Part shown: positions 1,085-36,777 of the stretch, piece by piece | Layout of the letters: the number at the start of each line of letters is the position of its first letter | Position numbering within the stretch: the stretch's first letter is position 1 | Assembly: GCA_963727315.1 (NCBI GenBank) | Contig: CAVSFE010000002.1 | Coordinates: 215,560 to 279,559, forward strand | DNA from: an uncultured Chloroflexia bacterium | GTDB taxonomy: Bacteria > Chloroflexota > Dehalococcoidia > Dehalococcoidales > RBG-16-60-22 | Length of the DNA stretch: 64,000 bases | Direction: 5' to 3' | The notes under the pieces: model-generated | Database searches by the model: none | Told to the model about the DNA's origin: nothing | What the model saw: only the letters and a program-made list of their open reading frames with translations | Program-made: the position numbers and the translations under genes

Positions 1085-1250
1085 CTCACCCCCTTACCCC
1101 CTCTCAAACAGACATATTTTACGTCCTCGTATTATCCCGTGTTTGAAAGGGGGTAAGTATATGAGAGGGGGCTTCGCCCCCTCTCTCCTTCACTCCCCTC
1201 TCCAGCCAGTAATGTCTATGGTTTCCACAATCGTTTCCGGCTGGAGAGGG
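1085..1250. repeat. Intergenic array of three palindromic hairpin modules (C, A, B)
   Basis: Module C: CTTACCCCCTCTCAAAC (1093-1109) pairs with GTTTGAAAGGGGGTAAG (1141-1157), one mismatch, 31-nt loop. Module A: GAGAGGGGGC/GCCCCCTCTC (1163-1185). Module B: CCCTCTCCAGCC (1196-1207) pairs with GGCTGGAGAGGG (1239-1250), 31-nt loop. The same modules recur at 8252-8483. Confidence 0.85.
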
Positions 1251-2378: not shown

Positions 2379-4499
2379 ATGACATATACCAAAATCCCGG
2401 AACGCATCAGCCGGCTCGACGAGCTGGCCAACAGCCTCTGGTGGAGCTGGCACATGGTCGGGAGGACCGTCTTCAGGACGCTGGACTATATGCTATGGCA
2501 CCAGAGCGGGCACAATCCAGTCCAGCAGCTCTACCAAATCAGCCGGGAAAAGCTCGAGGCCGCCGCCGCCGACCCCGCCTTCCTCTCTTTATATGACACC
2601 GCCATTGCCGCCTTTGACAGCGAGAAAAAAGACGGCAACTCCTGGTACAATCTCAACCACGCCGGCGCTTTCACGGGGCCCATCGCCTACTTTTCCATGG
2701 AATTCGCCATTCACAACTCGCTGCCCATCTATGCCGGCGGCCTGGGGGTGCTGGCCGGCGATATCTGTAAAGAGGCCAGCGACCTGGGGATACCGCTGGT
2801 GGCGGTGGGTTTCATGTACCCGCAGGGATATTTCCGGCAGCGTATCTCCGCGGACGGCTGGCAGGAAGAGGAATACCAGCAGCTGGACTTCAGCAAGGCC
2901 CCGGTGCGCCCCATCCTGTCCGCCACCGGCCAGAAATGCCTGGCCGAGGTCAATCTGAAAAATCATACGCTGCACATCGGGGCGTGGCTGGTCAACCTGG
3001 GTCGAGTAAACCTGTATCTCCTCGATACCGGCCTGGACGAAAACGACACCCAGGACCGGCAGCTGTCGAGTCGACTCTACACCGGCGACCGCGAACACCG
3101 CCTGCAGCAGGAAATCCTGCTGGGCATCGGCGGCGTGCGCGTCCTGCGGACGCTGGGCATCCAGCCCTCCGTCTGGCACGCCAACGAAGGCCATACCGGC
3201 TTTATGATGCTGGAACGCATTAGAGAGGAAACGGTTAAAGGCAAGCCCTTCGACCAGGCACTCGAGAGCGTGCAAACGAGCTCCGTATTCACCACCCATA
3301 CGCCGGTCCCGGCCGGCCACGACGTTTTCACCAACGAACTTATTTCTCCGTACTTTGAGAACTACTGGCCGTCCCTGGGTATCAACCGGCAGGACTTCCT
3401 CGATTTAGGGCGGAAGAGCCGCAGCACCGACGGCAATTTCAACATGACCGTCCTCTCGCTAAAGACCTCCGGCCACCGCAACGGCGTCAGCCGGCTCCAC
3501 GGCATCGTGACGCGACGCATGTGGTGCGGACTATGGATGGACTGCCCCGAGGACGAGGTGCCCATCACCTACGTGACGAACGGCGTGCACCTGCCGACCT
3601 GGGTCTCCCTGGAGAACCGCCAGCTCTATGAAAAATACCTCGGCAGCGACCTCATGGAAAGGCAGGACGACGTCGAGCTCTGGAAGCACATCGCCGATAT
3701 CCCGGACGAGGAACTCTGGCAAACGCACCTGATATTGAAGAGAAAGCTGTTCCACGTTATCCTGGAACGGGCGCAGCTGCGCTGGGCCAGGGGCGAGGCC
3801 TCGCCGCAGCAAATCCTGGCCATGGGCGCTTTGCTTGACTCCGATACTTTAACGATAGGTTTCGTCCGGCGTTTTACGGAATACAAGCGACCGTCGCTCC
3901 TGTTCCGGGACATCGAACGGCTGATAAAGATAGTCAACGACCCGTTCCGGCCCGTCCAGATAATCTTCGCCGGCAAGTCGCATCCCGCGGACACCGCCTC
4001 GAAAATACTCCTCCAGCGCGTGCACACCATGGCCAAGGACCGCATCTTCCAGGGGAGGATAGCCTTCCTCGAAGACTATGACATACGCCTGGCCAGGTAC
4101 CTGGTGCAGGGGGTGGACGTCTGGCTGAATACGCCGCGCCGCCTGCAGGAGGCCTCCGGCACCAGCGGGATGAAAGCCGCCATGAACGGCGTGCTCCACC
4201 TGAGCGTGCCGGACGGCTGGTGGCACGAAGGCTTTAACGGCGATAACGGCTGGGTCATCGGCGACGACACGATCAAAATAAGCACGGAGGCCGAGGACAG
4301 GTCCGATGCCGAGTCGCTTTACACCCTGCTCGAGGAAAAGGTCGTGCCCCTTTATTACCAACTCGACCGGAGCGGCACGCCGCGGGGCTGGATTGACATG
4401 GTAAAAAAATCGATAAGCTCAATAGCGCCGGTGTTCTCGGCGCGGCGGATGCTCAAAGAATACTGCGAGAAAATGTACCTGCCGGCCGCGAAATCCTGA
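2379..4499 (+). CDS. glgP: Alpha-glucan phosphorylase (GT35, DUF3417-type N-terminus)
   Basis: 706 aa. N-terminal LANSLWWSW block, GGLGVLAGD, and the PLP-lysine region EASGTSGMKAAMNG. Confidence 0.9.
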   Translation: MTYTKIPERISRLDELANSLWWSWHMVGRTVFRTLDYMLWHQSGHNPVQQLYQISREKLEAAAADPAFLSLYDTAIAAFDSEKKDGNSWYNLNHAGAFTGPIAYFSMEFAIHNSLPIYAGGLGVLAGDICKEASDLGIPLVAVGFMYPQGYFRQRISADGWQEEEYQQLDFSKAPVRPILSATGQKCLAEVNLKNHTLHIGAWLVNLGRVNLYLLDTGLDENDTQDRQLSSRLYTGDREHRLQQEILLGIGGVRVLRTLGIQPSVWHANEGHTGFMMLERIREETVKGKPFDQALESVQTSSVFTTHTPVPAGHDVFTNELISPYFENYWPSLGINRQDFLDLGRKSRSTDGNFNMTVLSLKTSGHRNGVSRLHGIVTRRMWCGLWMDCPEDEVPITYVTNGVHLPTWVSLENRQLYEKYLGSDLMERQDDVELWKHIADIPDEELWQTHLILKRKLFHVILERAQLRWARGEASPQQILAMGALLDSDTLTIGFVRRFTEYKRPSLLFRDIERLIKIVNDPFRPVQIIFAGKSHPADTASKILLQRVHTMAKDRIFQGRIAFLEDYDIRLARYLVQGVDVWLNTPRRLQEASGTSGMKAAMNGVLHLSVPDGWWHEGFNGDNGWVIGDDTIKISTEAEDRSDAESLYTLLEEKVVPLYYQLDRSGTPRGWIDMVKKSISSIAPVFSARRMLKEYCEKMYLPAAKS

Positions 4500-4528
4500 C
4501 ATCGATACTAGAGGATGGGATACAGTCC

Positions 4529-6307
4529 ATGGAACTGAGCGAGGGCCGCTACCGCATCGTCATCGAGGGCGTCAGCCCGGAGGTCGACGGCGGCCGTTTC
4601 CCGGCCAAGAGCGTCGCCGGCGATACGGTGGATGTCGAGGCGGACATCTACGCCGACGGGCACGATGCCATCTCGGCGCACCTGCTTTATCGCTACCAGG
4701 ATGAGACCGGCTGGACCGAGACGCCGATGCGCCACCTCGGCAACGACCGCTGGCGCGGCTCATTCACCGCCGCCAAAACAGGCGAATATATATTCACAAT
4801 AAAGGCATGGGTTGATGACCAACGCTACGTTATCACATATCCGCGTGAGCTCATAGTTAACGTCGACCGGGAAAAAGCCGGATGCAGCGCCTGGTACGAG
4901 ATGTTCCCCCGCTCCGCCTCCCCCGTACCCGGTCGGCACGGCACTTTCAAAGACTGCGAGGTACGCCTGCCCTATATCGCCGAAATGGGTTTCGACGTTC
5001 TCTATCTACCTCCCATTCACCCCATCGGAAAGACCGGACGCAAAGGAAAAAACAACACCCTAAACGCCGGACCGGAAGACCCCGGGACGCCCTGGGCCAT
5101 CGGCTCGGAGGAAGGCGGGCATAAAGCCATCAACCCCCGGCTGGGCACGCTGGAGGACTTCAAGCGCCTGCTGGTTAAAGCTAAAAAATATAATATCGAG
5201 GTCGCCCTGGACATCGCCTTCCAGTGCTCGCCGGACCATCCTTACGTTAAAGAGCACCCCGAGTGGTTCCTGCGGCGGCCCGACGGCTCCATCCAGTACG
5301 CCGAAAACCCACCCAAGAAATACCAGGACATTTACCCTCTTAACTTCGATACGGAGGACTGGAAAGGGCTCCGGGAGGAACTCAAGGGCATCGTCCTTTA
5401 CTGGGCTAAAAACGGCGTCCGCATCTTCCGCGTGGACAACCCGCATACCAAGCCCTTCGCGTTCTGGGAGTGGCTCATCGCCGAGGTGAAAAAACCGTAC
5501 CCGGATACCCTGTTCCTCTCTGAGGCGTTTACCCGACCCAAAATCATGTACCACCTGGCCAAGCTGGGATTTACGCAGTCGTATACCTATTTCACGTGGC
5601 GCAATAATAAAAAAGACATTACTGAATACCTTACCGAGCTGACGCGAACGCCGGTCAAGGACTTCTTCCGGCCCAACTTCTGGCCCAACACGCCGGACAT
5701 CCTCCACGAGTACTTGCAGACCGGCGGCCGGGCGGCTTTCATGGCACGCCTTGTCCTGGCGGCGACGCTGAGCTCCAACTACGGCATCTACGGGCCCGCC
5801 TTCGAGCTCATGGAGAACAGGCCGCGGGAGCCGGGCAGCGAGGAATATTTAAACTCGGAAAAGTATGAAATTAAACACTGGGATATCGACCGGCCCGATA
5901 GCCTCAAAGATTTCATCGGCCGCATTAACCGCATCCGCCGCGAGAACGCCGCCCTCCGGCGCAATCGCAACCTCTGGTTTAACACCACTAGCAACGACCA
6001 GCTGATATGCTACAGCAAACACACCGACGACCTTTCCAATATTATATTAACGGTCGTTAACCTCGACCCCCACGCCATGCAATCGGGCACGGTCAACGTG
6101 CCGCTGAAATCATGGGGCTTCGACACGGAAAAACCGTTCGAGGTACATGACCTCCTGAGCGATAAAAGCTATACCTGGGGCGGCGAATGGAACTACGTCG
6201 AGCTTAACCCTACCGTCTGCCCCGCCCATGTCTTTCGCCTCCTCGACCTCACGCACGCCGAAGAAAAAATCGTGGAGAGTGCCGTCGATGTCCCCGCGCA
6301 AGAGTGA
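4529..6307 (+). CDS. glgE: Alpha-1,4-glucan:maltose-1-phosphate maltosyltransferase
   Basis: 592 aa. GlgE-type N-terminus ([24 protein letters not shown]), [10 protein letters not shown]13 catalytic blocks ([22 protein letters not shown]). Somewhat shorter than the GlgE enzymes I recall. Confidence 0.85.
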
Positions 6308-8240: not shown

Positions 8241-8251
8241 CCTAAACTAAC

Positions 8252-8483
8252 CTCACCCCTTACCCCTCTCCAGCCAATAGTATTGTTTAAATCGATTTTT
8301 CCTCTGGCTGGAGAGGGGAGTATAGGAGAGAGGGGGCTTCGCCCCCTCTCGTTAGCGCACTCCCTTTTAAAAATGGGGCGTTAAGAGGGGTCTCGGCCCC
8401 TCTTTTTTTATTCCCCCTCTCAAATCAGGGATAAAGCGAGAACGAAAAATGTAATCCTTTGAGAGGGGGATAAAGGGGGTGAG
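8252..8483. repeat. Intergenic array of palindromic hairpin modules (B, A, A-prime, C) bracketed by an outer inverted repeat
   Basis: Outer CTCACCCC (8252-8259) pairs with GGGGTGAG (8476-8483). Module B: 8263-8275 pairs with 8306-8318, 30-nt loop. Module A: 8328-8350, the 23-mer identical to 1163-1185. Module A-prime: AAGAGGGG/CCCCTCTT at 8383-8404, followed by a T-run. Module C: CCCCCTCTCAAA (8413-8424) pairs with TTTGAGAGGGGG (8458-8469). Confidence 0.85.
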
Positions 8484-8490
8484 CAAAGAC

Positions 8491-10615: not shown

Positions 10616-10645
10616 TTGACAAAAGAACATTTGTTCTACTATAAT
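10616..10645 (+). promoter_or_regulatory. Sigma-70-like promoter with embedded LexA (Cheo-type) box for imuB-dnaE2
   Basis: TTGACA (10616-10621), 18 nt, TATAAT (10640-10645). A perfect GAACATTTGTTC (GAAC-N4-GTTC, 10625-10636) lies in the spacer. Confidence 0.75.
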
Positions 10646-10664
10646 GGTCTCATCGGGTGGAACT

Positions 10665-12086
10665 ATGAAATTGCTCTGCGTCCTGCTGCCCCATTTCCCC
10701 TGGCGGTGCGAAGTCCGGAGAAACCCCGACCTCGCCGGCCGCCCGGCATTAGTCGTCCAGTCGAAGGACGTAGCCGGTTCGCCGAAGCTGGTGCTGGACT
10801 GGGCCCCGGAGCTCGATGACCTGCAGCCCGATATGCCCCTCCAGCAGGCGCTGGCACGGCACGGGCAGGCCGCGCTGCTCCCGGCGGACGTGCCCTTTTA
10901 CCGCGCCGCCTTTAATGAAATACTGGATGCCCTGGAGAACATCAGCCCGCTGGTCGAAGAGGCCGACCTCGGCTGCGCATATATCGGCAGCGATGGCCTG
11001 CATCTTATCTACCCGGACGATAGCGCTATCATCGCCGCCGTGCGGGAAGCCGTGCCGGCGGTCTTTATGCCCCGGATGGGAATAGCCGGGAACAAGTTCC
11101 TGGCGTATCTGGCCGCCCGCCGCAGTCCTCCCGGCGGGCACCAGGTATACTCAGGCGATGCCGCCCCCCTCCTTAAAGACCTCCCCTGCGATGTCCTGCC
11201 GGTGTCTTTAAAGAGCCTGAGCAAGCTGCGCGACTTCGGCCTGAACACGCTCGGGCAGGTAAGCGCCCTGCCGCCCGGCCCCTTCCAGTCCCAGTTCGGG
11301 CCGGAGGGTAAAAGGATATGGGAGCTTGCCGGGGGCATCGACGCCACCCCCCTTTATCCCCGCATGATGGAGGCGGCCCGCGAGGAGTCCGCCGCGCTGC
11401 CTTCGGTGACCGTCTCCCTGGAGGCGATACTGTTCACGGTGGAGACGCTCCTACGGCGGGTCTTCGATAGCCTCGCCCGCAGGGGGCTGGGCATCCGCAG
11501 TCTCAACCTGTGGACCCGCACCTGGAACGCCGAGAGCTGGGAGCGCACCATCCGCTTCAAGGAGCCGGCCATGGACCTGAAAAACGCCCTGTCCCGCGTC
11601 AAGCGCACCCTGGAGGACTATCCCCAGCCCGGCCCGGTCGAGCAGCTGGGCATGAGCATTACCGGTCTGGGCTATCCGCGGGGTCGGCAGCGAAGCCTTT
11701 TTTCAGATATGAGGGCTAAAGAGCACCTGGCGGAAGACATCAAGCAGCTGGAGTCGAGGCTGGGCAATCCCCAGATATATAAAGTCAAGGAGGTCGAGCC
11801 GTGGTCGCGGATACCGGAAAGACGCTACGCGCTGACGCCTACAAGCCGGTAAACGCGCCGGAGCCGCTACGGGTGGAGGAAGACGCCGATGGTCTACCGA
11901 TTGCCGTCAGGACGAAGCGGCGGCAGGCCGTCAACTCTATCGAAGACCGCTGGCGACTCGACGACGAATGGTGGCGGGCGGAGCCGGTATCAAGCGATTT
12001 ATTATAATGTCCTGCTCGCCTCCGGCCAGCGCCTGGTGCTCTATAAAGACCTCGTTACGGGTGAATGGTACCAGCAGGAGTATTAG
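10665..12086 (+). pseudogene. imuB: ImuB-like Y-family polymerase homologue, 3-prime end split over three frames as assembled
   Basis: The main ORF MKLLCVLLPHFPW... runs to a stop at 11852. The expected C-terminal region continues in a second frame (YKPVNAPEPLRVEEDADGLPIAV...EDRWRLDDEWWRAEP). It then returns to the first frame (YYNVLLASGQRLVLYKDLVTGEWYQQEY, stop 12086). The gene lies immediately upstream of dnaE2. Confidence 0.75.
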
Positions 12087-12098
12087 GATACTACTGCC

Positions 12099-15000
12099 AT
12101 GTCTTACGCCGAGCTTCACTGCCACAGCTATTATTCCTTCCACGACGGCGCTGCGTCGCTGGAAGAGCTCATGGTGCGCGCCAAAGGCCTCGGCTACCGC
12201 GCCCTAGCCGTCACCGACCACGATAATTTATGCGGGGCGATGTGCTTCGCGCAGCTGGCCAAATCACTGGAGATGCAAGGCATTACCGGCGCGGAACTGA
12301 CGCTGGAAAACGGTTTTCATTTAACCCTGCTGGCTAAAGACGGAACGGGCTATAAAAACCTCTGCCGCCTCATCACCGCCGCCCAGAACTCCGGCGAGCG
12401 CAACGCCCCGGCTCTTTCCCCTGCGCTCCTGCCGGAGCATGCCGAAGGACTCATCGCCCTCTCCGGCTGCCTGCAGGGAGAATTATCGCAGCTGGCAGCT
12501 AAAAATCGCCTGCCCGAGGCCAAAGCTTTAGTAAAGCAATACCTCGACTGGTTCGGTTCAGACAACTACTACATCGAGCTCCAGCAGAACCTGGCCCACG
12601 GCGACACGGCGCGCAACATCGCCCTGCTGAAGCTGGCTAAAGAAACGGGCGCCAAAGCGGTCGCCACCGGCAACGTCCACTACCACGTCAGGGAAAGACA
12701 TCGTTTACAGGACTGCCTGGTGGCGGTCAAGAACCTGAAAAGCCTCGAGGAGACCCACCGCGAAAGGCGCCCCAACTCAGAATACTATCTGCGCCCTGTG
12801 GATGAGCTTAAAGTCCTCTTCAAAGACTGCCCGGAAGCTTTAGAAAACACCCTCAAAATAGCCGAACGCTGTACTCTTGACCTGACGGAGGACTTAAGCT
12901 ATATCTTCCCCGAATACCCCGCGCCGGAAGGGTTCACGCCGCAGACCTACCTGGAAAAGCTCTGCCACGAGGCGGCGGTGCGACGCTACGGTTCCATCAC
13001 CCCGCAGGTAAAAGCCAGGCTGGATGAGGAGTTCGCCCTGATAAAAAAATACAGCCTCGCCGGCTTCCTGCTGATGTACCACGAGGTCATCAAGCTGGGG
13101 CGGGACGTCATGATCGACCTGGGCCTGAGCGACCCGTCCCTGACCGTCGAGGAGAACCCGCCGGGGAGGGGTCGCGGCTCATCGGTGGCTTTACTGGTAG
13201 GCTACCTCATCGGCCTCTCGCACATCGACCCTCTCAAGTATAATCTGTCGTTAGAGCGTTTCCTCCCCGCCGATACCATGACCAACGTGCCGGATATTGA
13301 CCTGGATTTTCCCCGCTCCATCCGCGAGGAGCTCATCCTGCGCACGCACCAGAAGTGGGGCTGGCGGCACGCTGCCCTCGCCGGCACCATCTGCACCTAT
13401 ATGATCAAGGGGGCGGTCAGGGACCTGGGCAAAGCCTTAGGACTGCCGGAGGCGGAAATCGACCAGCTTTCCAAGCAGGCGGACTGGGGCAGCGCCAAAA
13501 AGCTCGGCAGCAAGATGGAGCGCATGCCCAACTTTAAAGATAAGGTAGACGCCCCCGTCTGGCGCGACCTCATCAGCCTGGCGGCCGAGCTGGACGGCTT
13601 TCCCAAGTACACGGGGCAGCACCCCGGCGGTATGATTCTTTCCTCCACCCCCCTCATCGATATCGTGCCCGTCCAGCGGGGGGCTATCGAGGGGCGCTAC
13701 GTCTGCCAGTGGGACAAGGACAGTATCGACGACGCCGGCTTCGTGAAAATCGACTTTTTAGCTCTCGGCGCTTTGTCTCAGCTTCAGGACGCCATCGACC
13801 TTATCAAGGGCCGCACCGGCGAAAGAATCGATATGTCCCGCATCGATTTCGAGGACGCCAAGGTCTACGATATGCTCTGCAAGGGCGATACCATCGGCAT
13901 TTTCCAGGTGGAGTCGGCCGCCCAGATGCAGAACATTACCCGCCTAAAGCCGAGAAATCTGCTGGACATGGCGCACGAAGTGGGCGCCGTCCGGCCCGGC
14001 GTGGGCGTTAACCACGGCGTGCAGGAGTACTTGGCGCGGCGCAGCAAACGCAAGCCCGTAACCTACGACCACCCCCTTGAGCAGCGGGCCCTGGAGCGCA
14101 CCCTGGGCGTGGTCTTGTTCCAGGACCAGGTCAACCAGCTGGCGATAGACGTCGCCGGCTTTGCCCCCAGCGAGGCCGACCGCCTCCGCCGCGCCTTCGG
14201 GCGCAAGCATAACGACGAGCTTATCGAGCAGTACCATCAAAAGTTCCTGGCCGGGGCTAAAGAGCGCGGCGTTGATGAAAAAGCCGCGGAAACGGTCTTT
14301 AAGAAGTTCAACGGCCAGTACATGTTCCCGGAGTCGCACGCGTTCGCCTTCGGGGTAACGGCCTACCAGGCGTCCTGGCTCAAGTATTACTATCCCCTGG
14401 AGTTCTTCGTGGCGATATTTAACCAGCAGCCGATGGGCTTTTATAACCTGGAAACGCTGAAGGAGGACGCCCGGCGGCACGGTATCACGGCGCTGAACCC
14501 GGATATAAATAAGAGCAGCGCCAAATGCACGATAGAAACGGCAGGGGAAGCTCGAAGGGGCGCCAGCCCCTTCGAAAATAATCATTTCCCCCTCTCCCTT
14601 AATGGGAGAGGGCAGGGTGAGGGTGATAAGAAAGCCAGGAATGAACGACACGCGGAGGTCTCACTGGATTCCCGCTTTCGCGGGAATGACGGTACGGGCG
14701 CCGCCCTGCGATTGGGCTTCCTGAACGTCAACGGACTCGGCGAGGTCTTCGCCAAAGCTATCGAGGAGGGGCGGGCAAAACAGGGGGCGTTTAAAACCAT
14801 CGGCGACTTCCTCGAACGCACCGGCGTGCTGGAAGAGGTCGCTTTAAACCTCGCCTCCGCCGGCGCCTTCGACAGCCTCGAGCCCAACCGACGCCAGGTG
14901 AAGTGGGAAATCGGCCTGCGCTACCGTCCCGTCAACTCTCAGCTGCCCCTCCCCCTGCCCGTAGCGCAGGACATGGTAGAGCTGGCCACGCCGACCGACT

Positions 15001-15395
15001 GGGAGCGGATGAAAGGCGAGTATGACGTGTTGGGCCTTTTCCCCGCCGGCCACATCATGTCCCGGTTGCGCCCCCGCTTTAAAAACGGCTTCCGCACCAG
15101 CAGGGAGATTGAAAAACTCCGCGACGGCGCTCACATCACCGCGGCGGGGCTGGTCATCCGCCGCCAGCGGCCCCACGGCAAGGTGGTCTTTATCACCCTG
15201 GAGGACGAGTTCGGCCATATCCCCTGCATGGTCTTCGGCAAGACCTACGAGCGCTACGAGCATACCTTCCGCTCGGCGTTCCTCATAATCAAGGGAAGGC
15301 TGACCCGCCGCGAGGGCACCTGCAACGTGGTCATCAATGAAGCGAAGGCCTTCACCGGCATCGATAAAGCGCCGCATTCGAAGGACTGGTGCTAA
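12099..15395 (+). CDS. dnaE2: Error-prone DNA polymerase III alpha-type subunit DnaE2
   Basis: 1098 aa, uninterrupted. PHP domain start YAELHCHSYYSFHDGA, VTDHDN, polymerase core (PDIDLDF, GQHPGGMIL, VKIDFLALG), C-terminal OB region. Position after imuB and behind a LexA box. Confidence 0.9.
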   Translation: MSYAELHCHSYYSFHDGAASLEELMVRAKGLGYRALAVTDHDNLCGAMCFAQLAKSLEMQGITGAELTLENGFHLTLLAKDGTGYKNLCRLITAAQNSGERNAPALSPALLPEHAEGLIALSGCLQGELSQLAAKNRLPEAKALVKQYLDWFGSDNYYIELQQNLAHGDTARNIALLKLAKETGAKAVATGNVHYHVRERHRLQDCLVAVKNLKSLEETHRERRPNSEYYLRPVDELKVLFKDCPEALENTLKIAERCTLDLTEDLSYIFPEYPAPEGFTPQTYLEKLCHEAAVRRYGSITPQVKARLDEEFALIKKYSLAGFLLMYHEVIKLGRDVMIDLGLSDPSLTVEENPPGRGRGSSVALLVGYLIGLSHIDPLKYNLSLERFLPADTMTNVPDIDLDFPRSIREELILRTHQKWGWRHAALAGTICTYMIKGAVRDLGKALGLPEAEIDQLSKQADWGSAKKLGSKMERMPNFKDKVDAPVWRDLISLAAELDGFPKYTGQHPGGMILSSTPLIDIVPVQRGAIEGRYVCQWDKDSIDDAGFVKIDFLALGALSQLQDAIDLIKGRTGERIDMSRIDFEDAKVYDMLCKGDTIGIFQVESAAQMQNITRLKPRNLLDMAHEVGAVRPGVGVNHGVQEYLARRSKRKPVTYDHPLEQRALERTLGVVLFQDQVNQLAIDVAGFAPSEADRLRRAFGRKHNDELIEQYHQKFLAGAKERGVDEKAAETVFKKFNGQYMFPESHAFAFGVTAYQASWLKYYYPLEFFVAIFNQQPMGFYNLETLKEDARRHGITALNPDINKSSAKCTIETAGEARRGASPFENNHFPLSLNGRGQGEGDKKARNERHAEVSLDSRFRGNDGTGAALRLGFLNVNGLGEVFAKAIEEGRAKQGAFKTIGDFLERTGVLEEVALNLASAGAFDSLEPNRRQVKWEIGLRYRPVNSQLPLPLPVAQDMVELATPTDWERMKGEYDVLGLFPAGHIMSRLRPRFKNGFRTSREIEKLRDGAHITAAGLVIRRQRPHGKVVFITLEDEFGHIPCMVFGKTYERYEHTFRSAFLIIKGRLTRREGTCNVVINEAKAFTGIDKAPHSKDWC
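14552..14687. repeat. Three perfect stem-loops embedded in-frame in dnaE2
   Basis: TCGAAGGGGC/GCCCCTTCGA (14552-14575), CCCTCTCCC/GGGAGAGGG (14590-14612) and ATTCCCGC/GCGGGAAT (14668-14687). The translated segment is low-complexity (…PLSLNGRGQGEG…SRFRGNDG…). Confidence 0.85.
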
Positions 15396-15469: not shown

Positions 15470-16906
15470 ATGGCAAGAAATACCATGGTGAAAACGATTA
15501 GAGAACGCGCGAGAGATACCAAAGTCATCCGTGAAGCCGATGTGGTAGTCGTCGGCGGCGGACCGGGCGGCATCGGGGCCGCCATCTCGGCCGCCCGCAA
15601 CGGCGCGGATACCGTTCTCATCGAGCGCTACGGCTACCTCGGCGGCATGGGCACCGGCGGTCTCGTCACCTTCATCCCCCAGTTGACCGACTACACCGGC
15701 AAGCAGCAGATTGCCGGCATCACGCAGGAGTGGATCGACCGCCTTATCGCCCGCAACGCCGTGGACATGCCTAAAAAAGAGCACTGGGGCTCCCTGGACA
15801 AGGAGCTTGTCCGCTACTATTTCCAGCGCAGCTTTTTCATGACGCGCCTCGACCGCGTGGTCTACGCCGCCATCATCGATGCCGAGGTCTCCAAGTTTAT
15901 CCTCAACGAAATGGTGGAAGAGGCTAAAATCAAGGTCTATTGCCATGCCTGGGGCACCGAGCCTATCATGGAGGGCAACCACTGCAGGGGCGTCATCATC
16001 GAGAGCAAGTCCGGCCGGCAGGCTATCCTGGGCAAAATCGTTATCGATTCCACCGGCGATGGCGACCTCTTCCCCTACGCCGGCATCGAGTTCGAAGATA
16101 ATATCCCGCCCAACTTCCGCATCGCCAACCTGGCTTTATGTTTCTGGGTTGCCGGCGTCGACCTCAAGAAGGCGATGGAGTTCCGCCAGAACAACCCGAA
16201 GGAATTCATGGAGTTGAACCGCAAGGCTATGGAATACGGCGGCCAGGGAGGCTTTATGCCCAGCAACCTGCCCAATCAGGACGCGGTCGTCTGGTTCCAC
16301 AACCGTTTCCCCAACAAGAGCCAGGTAGACGTCGAGGAGCTTACCCGCGTCGAGTTCGAAGGCCGCAAAAAGGCGATAAAGACTGCCGAATTCTTTAAAA
16401 AGAACGTGCCGGGTTTCGAAAAGAGCTTTATTGTACTTACCGGCCCGCAGCTGGGCACCCGCTCCAGCCGCCGCATGGTCGGCGAGTACCAGCTCACCGA
16501 AAAAGACCTGGCGGACAATCAGCCGTTCGAAGATACCATCGCTATCTTCCCCGACCTTGACCGCGGCCAGGAGTCGCTGGACCATCCCAACATGTACATC
16601 CCCTACCGCTGCCTGCTGCCCAAGAACGTGGACAACTTCCTGGTGGCCTGCCGCGCCTTTTCCTCGGACATGCACGTCCAGGACTACTTCAACCTCATCC
16701 CGCACTGCATCGCCTTCGGCGAGGCCGCCGGCGCGGCGTCGGCCATGGCGCTCAGCGCCGGCGTGGGTGTTAAGGACGTGGATATCAAAGCCCTGCAGAA
16801 GCAGCTCGCCAAGCAGGGCGTGCCGCTGCCGGATATGAAGAAAAAGGTGGACTATAAGTATAAAGGGCCGGCGCTGGTCGGGCCGGCGTTTACACCGCCA
16901 CATTAA
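15470..16906 (+). CDS. FAD-dependent oxidoreductase (FAD_oxidored-type), substrate unknown
   Basis: 478 aa with GGAGGAG upstream. N-terminal dinucleotide fold VVVVGGGPGGIGAAISAARNGADTVLIERYGYLGGMGTGG. IDSTGDGD block. Confidence 0.8.
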   Translation: MARNTMVKTIRERARDTKVIREADVVVVGGGPGGIGAAISAARNGADTVLIERYGYLGGMGTGGLVTFIPQLTDYTGKQQIAGITQEWIDRLIARNAVDMPKKEHWGSLDKELVRYYFQRSFFMTRLDRVVYAAIIDAEVSKFILNEMVEEAKIKVYCHAWGTEPIMEGNHCRGVIIESKSGRQAILGKIVIDSTGDGDLFPYAGIEFEDNIPPNFRIANLALCFWVAGVDLKKAMEFRQNNPKEFMELNRKAMEYGGQGGFMPSNLPNQDAVVWFHNRFPNKSQVDVEELTRVEFEGRKKAIKTAEFFKKNVPGFEKSFIVLTGPQLGTRSSRRMVGEYQLTEKDLADNQPFEDTIAIFPDLDRGQESLDHPNMYIPYRCLLPKNVDNFLVACRAFSSDMHVQDYFNLIPHCIAFGEAAGAASAMALSAGVGVKDVDIKALQKQLAKQGVPLPDMKKKVDYKYKGPALVGPAFTPPH

Positions 16907-16920
16907 ACAGGGCGAGTTCA

Positions 16921-18323
16921 ATGACAGCCCAAAAAACTATTACCGAATCCTCCCGCAAACTTAAAGTAATCCGCGAAGTGGACGTGGTCGTGGTGGGGGG
17001 CGGACCGGGAGGGGTCGCCTCGGCCATCAGCGCGGCGAGAAACGGCGCCAAAACCGTCCTCATCGAAAGATACGGGCACCTCGGCGGCATGGCCACCGGC
17101 GGCCTGATCAATATTTTCCCCAACCTGAGCGATATCAGCGGCAAGCAGCATATCTTCGGGCTCACACAGGAAATCATCGACCGCCTGGACAGGCGCGGCG
17201 GGGCTTCGTATCCCCGTAAAGAGGACTGGGGCACCACCGACCCCAAAGTGGTCGATTACTATCTTAATGCCAATCTCGGTTTTTTCTACGTGCGCAAAGA
17301 CCCCAACCGCGGCGGTAAACAGGCAGTGCTTTATACCGCCGTCATCGACCCCGAGATACTTAAGGACGAGCTCAACGATATGGTGCTGGGGGCAGGGGCG
17401 GAGCTTTTCCTGCATTCCTGGGGCACGCAACCTATCATGGACGGGGATACGGTCAAGGGCGTTATCTTCGAGAGCAAGTCCGGGCGGCAGGCGATCCTGG
17501 GCAAAGTCGTTATCGACGCCACCGGCGACGGCGATATCTTCGTGGCGGCCGGCGCCGACTTCGACGCTACCCTGAACAACAAATACCGCTCCGCCTGGCT
17601 GGCTTTCACTTTCTGGGTGGCCAACGTGGACATTAAAAAATACGAGGACTTCCAGGCTTCGCAGCCGGAAAAACACAAGGCACTGATGGACGAGCTTTTA
17701 AAGCTCGGGCGGCTATCCGCGTTTCTTTAAAGGCGTCCTGGAAAACCAGTCCGGCGTGCTCTGGTACCACTGCATGCAGCCGCAGCCCAACCCCACCGAC
17801 GCCATGGACGTAGAGCAACTGACGCAAATAGATATCAAAGCCAGAAAACGCGCCCTCATCACCCACGATTTCATGAGGAAGAACGTCCCCGGATTTGAGA
17901 AGTGCTTCGTCATGCAGACCGCCCCGCAGCTGGGCACGCAGGGAGGCCGCCGCGTTACCGGAGAATATACGCTTACCCAGGATGACATCGTCGCCGACCG
18001 GGTCTTCGAGGACACGATTGCCGTCCTCGCCAATAACGATTTAGGAGAAATTTCCGCCAGGCACCCGACTCTCTGCGTCCCCTACCGCTGCCTGGTACCC
18101 GAGGAAGATTGAAGGACTGCTCGTTGCCTGCCGGGCTTTCTCCTCGGAGGACAGCATCAACCAGTATTTTAATATCATCCCGCCCTGTCTTTGCTACGGC
18201 CAGGCCGCGGGAACGGCGGCCGCCTTAGCCGTCAAAGCCGGCATCCCGCCGCGAAAAGTGGACTATAAAGCCCTGCAAAGGAGCCTCATCAAACAGGGCG
18301 TGAATCTGCCTAAGAGCAAATAA
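16921..18323 (+). pseudogene. FAD-dependent oxidoreductase paralog, two frame breaks as assembled
   Basis: Collinear with 15470-16906 (VVVVGGGPGGVASAISAARNGAKTVLIERYGHLGGMATGG, IDATGDGD, NVPGFEKCF, YRCLVP, LVACRAFSS). The frame changes near 17712 and 18107. The stop is at 18321-18323. Confidence 0.8.
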
Positions 18324-18928: not shown

Positions 18929-18974
18929 ACATCAGAAAATAAGCTTAGCGCGGAAAGGCAAACTCTTGGGGGTG

Positions 18975-21779
18975 ATGATGAATAGTCCGGAACCGAGAGA
19001 TACCGCAATTCCGGTGCCTGATGAAAGCGAATACAAAGAGGGCGACCGGGTAGCCAAGGTCTGGCTGCTGTTTTCCGCGCTGTGGTTCCCTTTCTTCGCA
19101 GCTTTCGGTTTTCTTCTGGCGATCAAGTTCTTCTTTCCCACCTTTCTCAGCGACGCGGCGTGGGACACCTTCGGGCGCATCCGACCTTCCCACGTGAACG
19201 GCGTCCTCTTCGGCTTTGTTTCCTCCGGACTGATCGGGGCGATGTTCTGGATTACGCCGCGCCTGTGCGCGCGGGGGCTTTACCGCGCCAAGCTGGCCCT
19301 GGTGACCCCGTTCCTCTGGAATTTCGCCGTACTGGGGGGAATCATCTGGATTCTTTTCGGCGGCAGCCAGGGCCGGGAGTACGCCGAGCTTCCCTGGGGC
19401 ATCGATGTAGCGGTCATGGTCGCCCTGGGGCTAAACGCCTACATCATCTGGGGCACCGTTATCAAACGCCGAGAAAAGAAGCTGTACGTGTCCCTATGGT
19501 ATTACCTGGGGACGACCATCTGGTTTCCCATTGTGTATTTTATCGGGAACGTCATGTGGAAGCCCCCGGAAGGCGCCCTCAACGGGACGACCGATGCCGT
19601 CTTTAACTGGTACTACGGTCACAACGTATTAGGCCTGTGGTTTACCACGCTGGGCATCGCCGCCTGGTACTACTTCATTCCCAGGATGATAAAAAGGCCG
19701 CTTTACAGCCACCTGCTTTCGTTAATCGCCTTTTTCAGCATCGCCTTCTTTTATACCGGGGTCGGCGGGCATCACCTGCTGCAGTCGCCCATACCCGAGT
19801 GGCTCAAGACCATCGCCGTCACCATGACCGTCCTGATGATGGTCCCGGTGCTCGCCTTCCTGGTCAATATCGGCCTCACGATGCGCGGGTCGTGGCACCG
19901 ATTGATCGGCAACACGGCCCTGCAATTCGTCTTCGCCGGTTTCGTGATGTACGTGCTGGTCTCGATACAGGGCACATTGCAGGGACTCAGGAGCACCAAC
20001 GCCTATCTTCACTTCTCGCAGTGGCCGGTGAGCCATTCGCACCTGGCCCTGCTGGGGGGATTCGGCTTCCTGGTGGCGGGCATGGCCTATTTCCTGGTGC
20101 CGCGCATTACCGGGTTCAAACTCTACAGCCAGAAACTGATGCGATGGAGCTGGTGGCTCGCCTTTATCGGGTTCTTTTCCTTCTTCGCCTCCATGGTGGT
20201 CACGGGGCTCCAGCAGAACGCCAACTGGTACACGCACATCAATGTCGTGGAGACCCTGCCGACCCTGACGACGGACCTGGTCTGGCGGGCCATTTCCGGT
20301 GGGGTCATCGTTATCGCCGCTATCCTCTTCGCCTACAACATTTTAGTCACCCTTTTCCGCCGCGGCGAGGCCCACGAGGAAGAGCACATCGAGGTTATTC
20401 CGCCGATTTCCAACAAGCCCCATTCCGGCTTCCTGCGCCGCAGCCAGGAACACCTGAACGTGCCGATTATTATCGGAGGAGGACTGGCGGTATTTTCCGT
20501 CATGACCTTCATGGTCGTGGCGATGCCCTACATGTTCTCGGCGGACGCCCCCAGCTGGAGGGCGCACGAGCTGACCGCGCAGGAGCAGGAGGGGCAGGCT
20601 GTCTATAAGAGCATGGGGTGCTTCTACTGTCACAGCCAGTTCATCAGGCCGCAGGACTGGGCGATGGGCTATACCTCCCAGGCAGGGGACTTTTATTTTT
20701 CTATTCCCAACTTCCTCGGCACGGAGAGGACGGGCCCCACGCTGGGGCAGATAGGCGGCAAGCGCCCCACGGAATGGAACGTGCAGCATATCAAAGACCC
20801 GCGCTCGGTCTCGCCGAGCTCCATCATGCCTTCGTTCGGAGATTTTCTCACAGATACCCAGCTGGAATCGCTCGTGGCCTACCTCGATACCCTGGGCAGC
20901 GAAGACCTGGAGACCCGCGACTTCCAGCAGCCGGTGCCGTACGAGTTCCGTTTCAACGAAAACCCCAACCTGCCGCTGATGACGCTGGTCGAGGCTGGCT
21001 ATGATAGTGAGAACGACACCTACTCCGGCCCCCAGGCGGAGGGAGAACAGTGGGGCACGCTTTTCGATGAGGGTAAAGCCCTCTTCACGCAAAAATGCCT
21101 TTCCTGCCACGGTTGTTCTGGGAACGGGCAGGGCCCCTACGCCCGCCAGACGGTCACCCGTCCGGCCAACCTGAACGAGAGGATATCGAATTTCCCGGAG
21201 ACCAACCCGGAAGCCTTCCATTACTGGCGTATCTTCGAAGGGGTGCCGGGCACCGCCATGCCTTCCTGGGGCCTGAGCCTGGACGAGGACACCATCTGGA
21301 AGATAGCTACTTATGAAATGAGCTTCGCCCAGGGCTCCATCAGGACGATCGACGGGAGCGTATCGGATGACGAGGGCGACCAGTTCGACGCCGAGACTCA
21401 CCCCATGCCATTGATAGCCGGCACCCTGGAGGATTTCGACAAGGGACAAGCCCTCTATGCGCTTTACTGCGCCCAGTGCCATGGCGCCGACGGACACGGC
21501 GACGGTCCCGCTTCCATCGCCACAGACGGAGGCTATATCCGGCCCGAGCCAGCCAATTTCGAGGAGAGCGGCGGGGACTTCACCAACTACGGCCGCTGGG
21601 TCTGGAAGGTCACCGAAGGCGTGGAGACGACGAACATGCCGCCCTGGAAATACGCCCTGAGCCCGGAGGAAATATTCCAGGTCATCTTCTACGAGCAGAG
21701 TTTTTCCACGCGTGACGATTATATCAATAAATGGGCGCCTCTATACACCGACACCTTCGCCCGGGATTTGAAGGGGTGA
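18975..21779 (+). CDS. ccoN: cbb3-type cytochrome c oxidase, fused CcoN + CcoO + dihaem cytochrome c (CcoP-like) polypeptide
   Basis: CcoN ligand blocks HVNGVLFGF, WYYGHNVLGLW, GVGGHHLL, SHSHLALLGGFG. CcoO part CFYCHSQ…TGPTLGQIGGKR…IMPSF. Two more CxxCH sites (CLSCHGC…MPSW, CAQCHGADG…MPPW). The ORF is open from a TTG at 18966. Confidence 0.85.
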   Translation: MMNSPEPRDTAIPVPDESEYKEGDRVAKVWLLFSALWFPFFAAFGFLLAIKFFFPTFLSDAAWDTFGRIRPSHVNGVLFGFVSSGLIGAMFWITPRLCARGLYRAKLALVTPFLWNFAVLGGIIWILFGGSQGREYAELPWGIDVAVMVALGLNAYIIWGTVIKRREKKLYVSLWYYLGTTIWFPIVYFIGNVMWKPPEGALNGTTDAVFNWYYGHNVLGLWFTTLGIAAWYYFIPRMIKRPLYSHLLSLIAFFSIAFFYTGVGGHHLLQSPIPEWLKTIAVTMTVLMMVPVLAFLVNIGLTMRGSWHRLIGNTALQFVFAGFVMYVLVSIQGTLQGLRSTNAYLHFSQWPVSHSHLALLGGFGFLVAGMAYFLVPRITGFKLYSQKLMRWSWWLAFIGFFSFFASMVVTGLQQNANWYTHINVVETLPTLTTDLVWRAISGGVIVIAAILFAYNILVTLFRRGEAHEEEHIEVIPPISNKPHSGFLRRSQEHLNVPIIIGGGLAVFSVMTFMVVAMPYMFSADAPSWRAHELTAQEQEGQAVYKSMGCFYCHSQFIRPQDWAMGYTSQAGDFYFSIPNFLGTERTGPTLGQIGGKRPTEWNVQHIKDPRSVSPSSIMPSFGDFLTDTQLESLVAYLDTLGSEDLETRDFQQPVPYEFRFNENPNLPLMTLVEAGYDSENDTYSGPQAEGEQWGTLFDEGKALFTQKCLSCHGCSGNGQGPYARQTVTRPANLNERISNFPETNPEAFHYWRIFEGVPGTAMPSWGLSLDEDTIWKIATYEMSFAQGSIRTIDGSVSDDEGDQFDAETHPMPLIAGTLEDFDKGQALYALYCAQCHGADGHGDGPASIATDGGYIRPEPANFEESGGDFTNYGRWVWKVTEGVETTNMPPWKYALSPEEIFQVIFYEQSFSTRDDYINKWAPLYTDTFARDLKG

Positions 21780-34648: not shown

Positions 34649-35263
34649 ATGGCCGCGAAGAACGAGATTAACATCATCATCTGCGGGGTGGGGGGACAGG
34701 GCGTCGTCCTGGTCTCCGAGCTGCTGGGCAATGCGGCGGTGAGGGGCAAAGTGGCGGTCAAGGGCTCGGAAGTGCTGGGGATGGCGCAGCGGGGAGGCTC
34801 CGTGTTCAGCAACCTGCGGCTGGGCGGCGAGGCCATCGCCCCGATGACCCCGGAAGGCAAATGCGATGTCCTCATCGCCGTGGAGCCATCGGAAGCGTTG
34901 AGAAATATTCAATACCTCGCGAAAAACAGCGTGGTCGTCCTCAACACGACGACCGTCCTGCCGTACACCGTCTACCTGGGCAAGAGCGGGTATCCGTCCC
35001 AGGACGAAATAATCGAAAAGCTCCGTAAAGTCACCGACCGCATTATCACGCTGGATGCCAGCGGGCTGGCAAAGCAGGCGGGGAGCCTGCAGGCGGCCAA
35101 CGTGGTCATGCTGGGGGCGCTGTTCGGCACGGGACTCATGCCCGTCAAAGAGGAGACGGCCAAGGAAGCGATACTGGCGCGCTTCAAGGGAAAGGTCGGC
35201 GAGATAAATATCAAAGCCTTCGACCTTGGCTATGAATACATCCAGAAGGCACTCAAGGGGTAG
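34649..35263 (+). CDS. iorB: Indolepyruvate oxidoreductase beta subunit
   Basis: 204 aa. NIIICGVGGQGVVLVSELLG…SEVLGMAQRGGSV, the gamma-type POR domain. Starts 1 nt after the preceding stop. Confidence 0.85.
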   Translation: MAAKNEINIIICGVGGQGVVLVSELLGNAAVRGKVAVKGSEVLGMAQRGGSVFSNLRLGGEAIAPMTPEGKCDVLIAVEPSEALRNIQYLAKNSVVVLNTTTVLPYTVYLGKSGYPSQDEIIEKLRKVTDRIITLDASGLAKQAGSLQAANVVMLGALFGTGLMPVKEETAKEAILARFKGKVGEINIKAFDLGYEYIQKALKG

Positions 35264-35299
35264 CTACTAATAATCGTCTGCGAGGCCATTTGCCGGCAG

Positions 35300-35515
35300 A
35301 CGGCGACCGGGGCGCTGGAAAAAGTGCAGGCGCTGCCGGACGTCCAGCGCGTCAATTCCAGCCCGGACGGCCCCCTACAGCGACTCACGATACATGCGGC
35401 GCCGGGGACGGAAGTGAAAGCGAACGTCACGAACATCATCGGGGAAGGCAACATCGAGTCCATCGTCATGCGCGACCCGACACTGGAGGAAGCCTATCTC
35501 AATATTATCAAGTAG
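35300..35515 (+). pseudogene. Relic: C-terminal end of an ABC transporter ATPase
   Basis: The text reads …ALPDVQRV…LQRLTIHAAPGTEV…IESIVMRDPTLEEAYLNIIK*. This is the typical tail of ABC-2 ATPases. No Walker motifs lie upstream. Confidence 0.5.
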
Positions 35516-35605
35516 GTAATTTGATGAAGACCGCTCAATGAAGCTGAAATGAGAAATGGCTTGCTCCGCACCCATATTCGTGCTCCCTGCCCGACCGGCC
35601 AGTAA

Positions 35606-35719
35606 AAAGCCCTATACCAGCACGCAGGTATCGGTGATATCTGGCAGCAACTGCTGGTGATGGCGGCGTGGGTACTGGCCTGCTATGTTATTTCCCTCAA
35701 GGTTTTCCGTTGGGAATAA
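35606..35719 (+). pseudogene. Relic: last TM segment of an ABC-2 permease
   Basis: A 37-codon fragment, …GDIWQQLLVMAAWVLACYVISLKVFRWE*, preceded by in-frame stops. A stranded MKTAQ* start lies at about 35523. Confidence 0.4.
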
Positions 35720-35746
35720 AGCATCCATAGCTCAGGTTAGAAACGG

Positions 35747-35781
35747 GGAAGCCTCCCCAGGCCGGGAGGCTTCCTTTTTTT
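35747..35781 (+). terminator. Rho-independent terminator
   Basis: GGAAGCCTCCC (35747-35757) pairs perfectly with GGGAGGCTTCC (35764-35774), 6-nt loop, then T7. Confidence 0.8.
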
Positions 35782-35953
35782 ACTTGTCCCATTAACTCCT
35801 ACTCTTTTTATACAGTCCTTCAAAGATCAGCGGACAATATAACGATGGTAAGTTGATCACCTTAGTGACTTTCCCCCGATAAGAGGATTAAGCGTCTTGA
35901 CATATATAAACTGTAATTATAGACTTAATCAGCATTTTGGGGAGGTGCTCTCT

Positions 35954-36777
35954 GTGAAGTGCCCGCACTGCCAGGCTGAAAATCCCGAAGGTTCAGAATA
36001 TTGTAGAACATGTGGACAATCGCTGCGGCTTGAAACAGTGTGTCCCAAATGTGGGCATAGTAACCTGCATGATAGTGCGTTCTGCAACAAGTGTGGTCAA
36101 CCCCTGGCAGAAAAGGAACTACTACTCGCCAAACCGTCTTCCCCCTGCCCGCCTCCTTTGCCGGCGGCCGCTATCAGGTCAAGAAGTTTTTAGGAGAAGG
36201 CGGCAAGAAAAAAGTCTACCTCGCCCACGATACCGTACTAGATAGAGATGTCGCCTTCGCCCTCATCAAGACCGAGAAGCTGGACGAAGTCGCCCGCACC
36301 CGCATCAAGCGCGAGGCCCGCGCCATGGGAAAACTCGGTGTAAAACGGCCTGGTAGCGGCACCGCCGAGGATATGACGGCAGCTTATTTGGACAATGCCT
36401 ATCTTGAGGTTGCTGTATTGGTCGGGCATCAGCGGTCTGCCGAGCTGCTATTGAAACGTTTGGTCAAATGCAGCCAGTATAATCTTGAAGGTTCATGCGT
36501 GGCCCGCAATCTGGGCGGGGCGGCAGCACTCTTGGGTAAATATGGAGAAGCCCGCAAATATTACCAAGAAGCCATTAGAATCTGCACGGAGATGAGGTTT
36601 CGCCCGGAGCTTGCTCTCTCTCGCCTCCAGCTTGCCGAGCTTTTGCTGGAGCACTACCCGGATGAGAAAAAGGAAGCATTAGAGCACCTGGACTTTGCCA
36701 TCAGGGAGTTCCGCGAGATGAAGATGCAGCCCTCGCTGGAGCGTGCCTTACGCCATAAGGATATACTGAAAGCATAG
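35954..36777 (+). pseudogene. Relic of a large Zn-ribbon / Ser-Thr kinase / TPR regulator: kinase truncated after the N-lobe, one frame break
   Basis: Double zinc ribbon (CPHCQ…CRTCG, CPKCG…CNKCG). After a break near 36120 the text reads FAGGRYQVKKFLGEGGKKKVYLAHD…VAFALIK (Gly-loop and Lys of a kinase). No HRD/DFG follows, and the sequence jumps to a TPR-like tail (…LLGKYGEARKYYQEAIRIC…). Confidence 0.55.

Follow-up and report, generated by a model that had tools for sequence, protein, structure and literature searches.

The dnaE2 gene in a 64,000-nucleotide stretch of DNA from an uncultured Chloroflexia bacterium (contig CAVSFE010000002.1; hereafter the window) carries an in-frame segment of 53 codons that is very probably a mosaic of small, non-autonomous hairpin elements inserted in frame, not polymerase sequence. 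The mosaic combines a two-hairpin repeat element with an exact copy of the Neisseria Transformation Sequence (NTS), a repetitive extragenic palindrome (REP). Copies of both are also found at other places, for the most part in intergenic DNA. In orthologous genes the same turn of the protein is a hot spot: members of several families have been gained and lost there, inserted into one another and shortened, in every case by a multiple of three nucleotides.

The insert and its elements

The host open reading frame (ORF) is intact and encodes a DnaE2-type (ImuC) DNA polymerase with PHP, DNA_pol3_alpha, finger, HHH_6 and OB domains in Pfam. The palm aspartates D401, D403 and D552 are invariant among orthologues, which the JGI annotates as 'error-prone DNA polymerase'. 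The top NCBIfam model bears the same name (NF004225, 877.7 bits, not reaching its curated cut-off of 939); the model for replicative DnaE scores 709.7 bits. The dnaE2/imuC label is supported by features of an ImuB-like cassette, namely an upstream Y-family polymerase ORF with an IMS domain, a promoter that encloses the palindrome AGAACATTTGTTCT, and a conserved gene order.

In orthologues with an empty site, the turn consists of three codons (e.g. AAC GGC GCC) between ..ATAGAA and CTGCGxCTGGG. The window has 159 nt more, inserted in the protein between ..KCTIE and ALRLGF.., just ahead of the helix-hairpin-helix (HhH) region. The Pfam HHH_6 profile (90 positions) is stretched across 139 residues of the window protein. 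The first-pass annotation, made from the sequence alone, had described three perfect palindromes inside an uninterrupted ORF of 1098 codons and had quoted the encoded peptide with both of its flanks; palindromes, ORF, peptide and flanks are all correct. Its estimate of 40-45 inserted residues has to be raised to 53, and the hairpins that it treated as three consecutive like units are instead one two-hairpin element (hairpins 1 and 2) and one unrelated 28-nt REP (hairpin 3). The identity of hairpin 3 as an exact NTS and the clade-wide hot spot had likewise escaped that annotation.

A total of 17 perfect hairpins (stem of at least 8 bp, loop of 3-8 nt) were found in the window, compared with 6.1 +/- 2.7 in 30 dinucleotide shuffles, none of which contained three clustered inside 150 nt. 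When folded as RNA, the 168-nt region forms the three hairpins of the insert (-76 kcal/mol, z = -3.4). No T run follows any of them, and a role as terminator or attenuator was rejected on this ground. The two-hairpin element is open in three of the six reading frames and the NTS in five. The ACGG repeat that flanks the insert may represent a target duplication or microhomology; in the near-isogenic filled/empty pair L265/L266 (about 90% nucleotide identity; L numbers denote loci from relatives), a 189-nt insert is flanked by GCGG.

Hairpin 3 was identified from its minus strand. The 28 nucleotides read CGTCATTCCCGCGAAAGCGGGAATCCAG, match the NTS consensus CGTCATTCCCGCGMAVGCGGGAATCYRG at 28 of 28 positions (0 in 100 shuffles) and also fit the degenerate expression for Ssn-related motifs (SRM). 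The NTS contains dRS3 (ATTCCC-N8-GGGAAT) and is a single-stranded DNA (ssDNA) motif bound and cut by GIY-YIG nucleases of the SsnA type, of which it is a proven target in Neisseria (Chenal et al. 2025, PMC11893778); only 2% of the copies in N. meningitidis are intragenic. The motif class is characterized by numerous, clustered copies in a genome and by an ssnA gene (single-domain GIY-YIG, cd10448) that the motif often flanks. The same 28 nucleotides show the features of a CGTC-1 REP, a class that holds the neisserial dRS3 and RPE-6 of Rickettsia conorii (Di Nocera 2013, PMC3733652): a CGTC tag, an 8-bp stem starting with AT, a 4-nt loop and a CCA tail, laid out as CGTC-ATTCCCGC-GAAA-GCGGGAAT-CCAG. 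The peptides LDSRFRGND and VIPAKAGI encoded by hairpin 3 are those given for intragenic CGTC-1 REPs of R. conorii. A word-indexed protein search with the insert peptide returned no candidates, and an exhaustive search of representatives returned six matches, mostly spurious ORFs in which units of the NTS type, or of similar hairpin repeats, are arrayed in tandem.

Hairpins 1 and 2 belong to a dispersed family. The first-pass annotation had proposed a search for the palindromes elsewhere; the hairpin-1 pattern was found at 46 metagenome loci, 41 outside dnaE2 and 5 within, and the hairpin-3 pattern at 120 or more viral-contig loci. A second perfect hairpin (at least 9 bp, within 55 nt) accompanies 40 of 47 distinct copies of hairpin 1, compared with 1 of 940 shuffles. 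The stems of this second hairpin take some 25 different sequences, including CCCCCTTCCCTT, CCCTCTCCC and CCCCTTCCCC, and the tail CAGGGGGATAGGTT is common to the two-hairpin copies on its 3' side. A covariance model of hairpins 1 and 2, designated R1, matches the dnaE2 copy over 14541-14636 with 75.7 bits (E 2e-17) and recognizes three intergenic copies in the window. The first hairpins of these copies are exactly the three intergenic hairpins whose design had been likened to that of hairpin 1 in the first-pass annotation. No exact or near-exact (up to 3 mismatches) second copy of any of the three hairpins of the insert was found in the window, and the family link of the window copies emerged only with the structure-aware model.

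Two of the intergenic copies form a REPIN/MITE-like doublet between convergent genes (MITE, miniature inverted-repeat transposable element). The outer ends of the doublet (8245-8484), read by eye and absent from the inverted-repeat listing, are imperfect inverted sequences of about 20 nt, CTCACCCCTTACCCCTCTC / GAGAGGGGGATAAAGGGGGTGAG. The convergent neighbours of the doublet are glycogen-metabolism genes, and its hairpin with the T run could double as a terminator. The copy nearest the start of the window is adjoined by a long imperfect hairpin (1196-1250, CCCTCTCCAGCCAG...CTGGCTGGAGAGGG) that resembles hairpin 2 of the 8245-8354 copy.

Outside dnaE2, an in-frame two-hairpin element was found in the tilS gene (PP-loop and TilS_C) of four contigs (L233 5736-5830, L253, L237 and L261), just before the C-terminal domain. 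It is read there in a frame other than that used in dnaE2 (KGKLEGALAPSKIITPLPLIKG..). No Rfam family matched the insert at gathering or at permissive thresholds. The two-hairpin family is probably new, since nothing matching was found in Rfam or in the literature searched. Three kinds of candidate copies were rejected: an R1 match at 19301-19398, a false positive within an ordinary oxidase gene; apparent copies inside ORFs of L061, L063, L072 and L074, which look non-coding when translated; and matches to hairpin 2 plus tail in viral contigs, which are without a comparable hairpin 1. Coordinates of all features are given in Table 1.

Table 1. Insert, repeat copies and associated features, with coordinates in the window
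Feature	Position	Strand	Basis
In-frame insert, 159 nt, 53 codons, residues 815-867	14541..14699	+	orthologue alignment
Direct repeat ACGG (4 nt), left copy	14538..14541	.	read from sequence
Direct repeat ACGG (4 nt), right copy	14694..14697	.	read from sequence
Two-hairpin element: GGGG lead, hairpin 1, A/T-rich linker, hairpin 2, G-rich tail CAGGGTGAGGGTGA	14543..14629	+	covariance model R1
Hairpin 1, TCGAAGGGGC/GCCA/GCCCCTTCGA, perfect 10-bp stem, 4-nt loop	14552..14575
Hairpin 2, CCCTCTCCC/TTAAT/GGGAGAGGG, perfect 9-bp stem, 5-nt loop	14590..14612
Spacer, about 34 nt, also in orthologue L002	14630..14663	+	sequence comparison
Exact NTS / Ssn-related motif = CGTC-1 REP, palindrome = hairpin 3	14664..14691	-	0 mismatches to CGTCATTCCCGCGMAVGCGGGAATCYRG
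Hairpin 3, ATTCCCGC/TTTC/GCGGGAAT, perfect 8-bp stem, 4-nt loop	14668..14687
Second, minor hot spot, PHP-domain turn E70-N-G-F73, empty in the window	12306..12317	+	orthologue alignment
Intergenic two-hairpin copy between convergent ORFs, hairpin 1 at 1163-1185	1085..1193	-	R1, 29.4 bits, E 1.4e-5; inverted repeats
Intergenic two-hairpin copy, head-to-head with the next, hairpin 1 at 8328-8350	8245..8354	-	R1, 25.3 bits, E 1.5e-4; inverted repeats
Intergenic two-hairpin copy, hairpin 1 at 8383-8404, then T run	8371..8480	+	R1, 26.2 bits, E 9e-5; inverted repeats
DnaE2-type (ImuC) polymerase ORF, 1098 aa, intact	12099..15395	+	domain and family models
ImuB-like Y-family polymerase ORF, 402 aa, upstream of dnaE2	10644..11852	+	Pfam IMS, IMS_C; weak NCBIfam DNA polymerase IV matches
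Promoter-like TTGACA-18-TATAAT, 12/12 matches, directly upstream of the Y-family ORF	10616..10645	+	sequence

The site in orthologous genes

The 120 best homologues of the window protein (71-100% identical), all from metagenome-assembled genomes of Dehalococcoidales/Chloroflexota, were aligned using MAFFT. The alignment contains one hypervariable site, at residues 815-867 of the query. It holds 0-2 residues in 44 sequences, with a total protein length of 1042-1045 residues in empty orthologues, and unrelated inserts of 12-242 residues in the other 76, which supports the lineage specificity that the first-pass annotation had proposed to test. Among the GTDB species representatives (n=80), 28 are filled and 52 are empty. 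The deepest relatives (61-65% identity) are all empty. All 82 dnaE2 loci examined read through in a single frame.

The fillings are translated palindromes. The recurring peptides are GEARRGxSPFENN; PLSKTGEGDKGGEV; LSTYPPDPLPLAREGG..RGGLRPPL; CHPERSEGS..PRDSSVA.LPQNDS; VIPAKAGIQ..WIPYQVRNDG; and SPLIPLYERGK..FRKGRVREGF. The third of these, in the closest orthologues (LSTYPPDPL...), represents the two-hairpin family in opposite orientation. The left junction is met by six or more types of element, which occur in both orientations. Rapid turnover is indicated: pairs that are 95-96% identical outside the site differ by an empty site versus 63 residues, or by 44 versus 95 residues, and in a neighbour-joining tree empty alleles are scattered among filled ones. 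Decayed copies are also present (GEARRDLSPSDNS and GETRKGTSPDD). Inserts grow via nesting in L002 and P0051; in L002 (4671-4719), the hairpin TCCCGTATCGTAGTACGGGA lies in the loop of an NTS-type hairpin.

R1 gave 10 matches in the hot spot (7 loci) of the 82 dnaE2 loci versus 11 in the remaining 1.07 Mb, all of the latter intergenic; the density of the two-hairpin family per target nucleotide is about 800-fold higher at the site than in the flanks. The density of Ssn-related motifs is 2.08 per kb in the inserts versus 0.007 per kb outside (about 300-fold).

Further elements were observed among the inserts. CCCGTA..TACGGG hairpins related to the nested one of L002 are present in L016 and L035 (peptides APYQGTG and WIPYQVRDDG). 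A MITE-like element of about 105 nt, TGTCATYCTGAGCGMAGCGAAGRATC ... GATTCTTCGGTCG..CTCAGAATGACA, occurs in the hot-spot inserts of L006, L008, L012, L018, L053, L054 and L061; it encodes the peptides CHPERSEGS...PRDSSVA.LPQNDS, and its ends are NTS-like but outside the published SRM expression.

The second, minor hot spot is a Gly-rich turn and is filled in 14 of the 120 orthologues with about 20-39 residues, consisting of half or whole TGTCATTC...GAATGACA elements (examples are L002 2140-2189, L032, L053, L054 and L067). These two are the only positions in 1045 residues that collect elements. In the distant orthologue L076 (about 4174-5181) the main site is empty and extra Gly/Arg-rich residues follow GLRYRP, which suggests that other DnaE2 loops can take insertions too. 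A mini-hairpin GGCGC-N3-GCGCC lies just past the insertion point in 9 of the 44 empty sites, compared with a background of 1.4%. Because it results from the conserved G-A-L-R codons and is not seen at the second hot spot, it is regarded as a lead only.

The position within the protein was judged from a model and from a sequence alignment. In the AlphaFold model, strands 811-814 and 868-871 flank the segment, which has a confidence (pLDDT) of about 25 and no secondary structure. In the alignment to Thermus aquaticus (Taq) Pol III alpha (2HPI/3E0D), PDINKSS corresponds to residues 871-877 and GAALRLG to residues from 884 on, so that the insert replaces the six unaligned Taq residues 878-883, at the entry of the HhH-containing region. 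The surface-loop placement suggested by the first-pass annotation agrees with this, as the insert lies between two short strands, is predicted to be unstructured in a model of low quality, and faces the six-residue gap of the Taq alignment.

Origin and maintenance of the inserts

The observations are best accounted for by entry of the elements into the three-codon turn of DnaE2, presumably by a hairpin- or ssDNA-based or a microhomology-based insertion into the turn codons. The elements very probably survived because their product is in frame, free of stops and located at a tolerant surface position. A resident element may then enlarge the tolerated neutral target and attract later insertions, and the encoded peptide would be a disordered loop carried as baggage. 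The enrichment at the site may reflect targeting or retention. The view that REP/MITE-type palindromic DNA had landed in a polymerase loop without breaking the frame, put forward in the first-pass annotation, finds support in the lineage specificity, the dispersed copies and the loop position.

Several observations weigh against an origin by simple in-frame insertion of such elements. The exact hairpin-1 sequence and the NTS are each present in a single copy in the 64-kb window. In the relatives, 7 Ssn-related motifs per 1.04 Mb were found outside the hot spot versus 8 in 3.85 kb of inserts, a rarity that is odd for insertion driven by abundance. A tblastn search with an E. coli YhbQ sequence, combined with a motif scan, found no Ssn/GIY-YIG gene in the window or the 82 dnaE2 loci, and no transposase or RAYT gene was found in the window or the dnaE2 flanks. 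With a length of only 4 nt, the flanking repeats could have arisen by chance. Overall, the AlphaFold model is of poor quality (mean pLDDT 62, pTM 0.40). Pure junk should decay and the hairpin stems do not, which points to some constraint or homogenizing process acting on the hairpins.

This last point concerns the two-hairpin composite, which is shared by descent between the window, L002, L003 and L041. In these four species the element is 84-94% identical, whereas the third codon positions around it are only 63-71% identical. There is hardly any variation in stems and tail; the changes are limited to loops and linker and are non-synonymous. Hairpin 3 shows a compensatory stem change between the window and L002. 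Nor has the dnaE2 copy been homogenized with its divergent intergenic counterparts in its own genome, which argues against simple gene conversion. The hairpins of this sub-lineage are therefore under some constraint or, alternatively, subject to a palindrome-correcting process; even in the absence of selection, perfect stems could be maintained by arm-to-arm correction of quasi-palindromes.

The same conservation, together with the stable RNA fold, is consistent with hairpins that were recruited by the host and act as nucleic acid. They would slow or destabilize the dnaE2 mRNA or, as a template-strand NTS, serve as an Ssn cleavage site; expression, recombination or replacement of this SOS mutasome gene would be modulated, and the peptide would be a by-product. 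The cleavage of the NTS by SsnA in Neisseria (PMC11893778) and the argument that the presence of REPs in repair genes is not fortuitous (PMC3733652) also favour recruitment. It is nevertheless unlikely. The content of the site differs wildly between close relatives and 37% of the orthologues are empty, so no particular hairpin is required. Decayed copies exist, neither a terminator-like T run at the hairpins nor an Ssn gene in the window or the 82 dnaE2 loci was found, and the arm-to-arm correction mentioned above could perfect the stems. Quite unlikely is an extended version in which several unrelated hairpin elements, the NTS among them, actively target the turn as a landing pad, perhaps via GGCGC-N3-GCGCC, and in which the hairpins are selected for tuning the SOS mutasome gene through its expression, recombination or replacement by transformation.

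A hot spot that is only apparent was also considered, that is, one ancient insertion followed by vertical descent and divergence, with insertion being random and the site one of few tolerant loops. The composite shared by descent in four species and the nested growth in L002 and P0051 would fit this explanation, as would the permissive nature of the site, a beta-turn, and the Gly-rich turn at the second hot spot. It is given little credence because no outgroup (61-65% identity) is filled, filled alleles are mixed with empty ones in the tree and even within 95%-identical pairs, and at least six unrelated element types meet one left junction in both orientations. The restriction to two collecting positions and the enrichment of both the two-hairpin family and the Ssn-related motifs at the site argue in the same direction. 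A genuine lineage-specific protein module, i.e. a functional loop or domain of DnaE2 in which the palindromic DNA is incidental, is highly improbable and already contradicted by the data. The segment is always in frame and is conserved in four species, but neither length nor sequence is conserved across the orthologues, the residues are of low complexity, predicted to be disordered and outside Pfam coverage, and the same DNA is found between genes and also in tilS, where the frame differs. An assembly or chimera artefact, or an intein or intron remnant, has a probability close to nil. Repeats are classic sites of misassembly, but inserts at the same codon are present in more than 100 independent JGI, ENA and NCBI assemblies, including contigs of 0.1-2 Mb, and all are in frame. 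An intein was rejected, as Pfam gave no Hint/intein domain and the segment, 53 residues of low complexity, is far too short; no intron was found in Rfam.

The locus provides the comparative series that is needed to decide between targeted, tolerated and useful insertions. The occurrence of REPs in replication and repair genes observed in 2013 was left unexplained, and the present locus is a richer case. If the turn were indeed a targeted landing pad, the 'not fortuitous' remark of 2013 would gain a concrete mechanism. The locus also puts an exact copy of the NTS, on which the newly described Ssn ssDNA nucleases act, inside a gene of a phylum without prior listing of this repeat class. Mosaics of this kind inflate the diversity of protein families and are a source of many spurious 'VIPAKAGIQ / DSRFRGNDG' ORFs in databases.

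Gene context and comparison with known systems

The order of Y-family ORF and dnaE2 is kept in the relatives L001-L003. Between the hexamers of the promoter-like sequence, a perfect match to the sigma-70 type, lies the palindrome AGAACATTTGTTCT (GAAC-N4-GTTC, about 10625-10638), which we take to be a LexA-type box; with this palindrome inside, the sequence looks like a LexA-controlled SOS promoter. Downstream of dnaE2, a full-length FAD_oxidored gene (15470-16906) is followed by an ORF of 269 residues (16921-17730) that matches the first 180 of 416 profile positions and may be a split or decaying paralogue; L003 has two fragments at the corresponding place. A 937-residue ORF (18966-21779) fuses COX1, FixO and two cytochrome c domains (cbb3-type oxidase), and a catalase gene is located at 36983-38452. 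These oxygen-related functions are unexpected for classical Dehalococcoidia. A perfect 11-bp hairpin (GGAAGCCTCCC/GGGAGGCTTCC) is present at 35747-35774, in a 1.2-kb stretch (34875-36091) that has no long ORF.

In-frame REPs in dnaE2 and dnaE were published in 2013, and the phenomenon as such is therefore already known. Di Nocera et al. (PMC3733652) listed intragenic REPs of the GTAG and CGTC types, many of them in replication and repair genes, and argued that this is unlikely to be fortuitous. REP-bearing dnaE2 genes are those of O. terrae (residues 934-971, GTAG), S. wittichii (166-246), R. palustris (128-157) and E. litoralis (175-203; the last three CGTC). The dnaE gene of R. conorii carries a CGTC-4 REP at residues 853-861 of 1181 (PMC3733652, Additional file 3), which by its position could lie in the same pre-HhH turn. 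Hairpin 3 resembles the CGTC-1/dRS3/NTS repeats in its 28 identical positions, all class features, the peptide LDSRFRGND and the precedents in dnaE2. It differs in its host, which belongs to the Chloroflexota, whereas CGTC REPs are listed for five other phyla. Other differences are the single copy in 64 kb, the rarity of the motif elsewhere in the relatives, the lack of an ssnA-like gene in the window and dnaE2 loci, and the location at residue 815, compared with residues 128-246 in the proteobacterial dnaE2 genes (934-971 in O. terrae).

Rickettsia is the classic case of palindromic insertions in frame (Ogata 2000; Claverie & Ogata 2003; reviewed in PMC10969869). Like the Rickettsia palindromic elements (RPEs), the present elements are dispersed palindromes that lie in frame within housekeeping genes, at surface sites that the fold can accommodate. 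The repeat also occurs outside genes, the host ORF is intact, orthologues lack the segment, and the low-quality model places it in a loop. RPE-6 and RPE-4 have been assigned to the CGTC-1 and CGTC-4 classes, respectively (PMC3733652), and the analogy to RPEs drawn in the first-pass annotation is thus literal for hairpin 3, a REP of the class that includes RPE-6. RPE-1-type elements are about 150 bp long and have a conserved peptide, whereas the present insert is pieced together from two short elements that are unrelated to each other. The piling up of many families at one codon has not been described for RPEs.

The REP/REPIN/BIME-RAYT systems (IS200/IS605-type) share with the present elements short GC-rich hairpins, locations in gaps between convergent genes, head-to-head doublets (8245-8480) and mosaics of several families. 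They differ in that the three hairpins of the insert have no GTAG tag and no Y1 transposase was found among the scanned ORFs; the two-hairpin unit is also directional and longer than a REP. The bacterial MITEs found in genes (ERIC/RU, Correia, QMITE1; PMC10969869, PMC2759123) are likewise non-autonomous, 90-240 nt long and occasionally fused in frame, and their imperfect terminal inverted repeats may have a counterpart here in the doublet form. The present elements have no known parent insertion sequence, and the 4-nt direct repeats seen in two cases are uncertain as target duplications.

Very small dispersed repeats of cyanobacteria, tiny hairpin elements that insert into one another and into genes, are said to have been described by Elhai et al. 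in 2008. They differ in sequence and in phylum, and to our knowledge no dnaE2 hot spot is known for them. Compared with all of these systems, the new features are the host in the Chloroflexota, the hot spot resolved to the codon over more than 100 orthologues with several families, and the exact NTS inside a gene.

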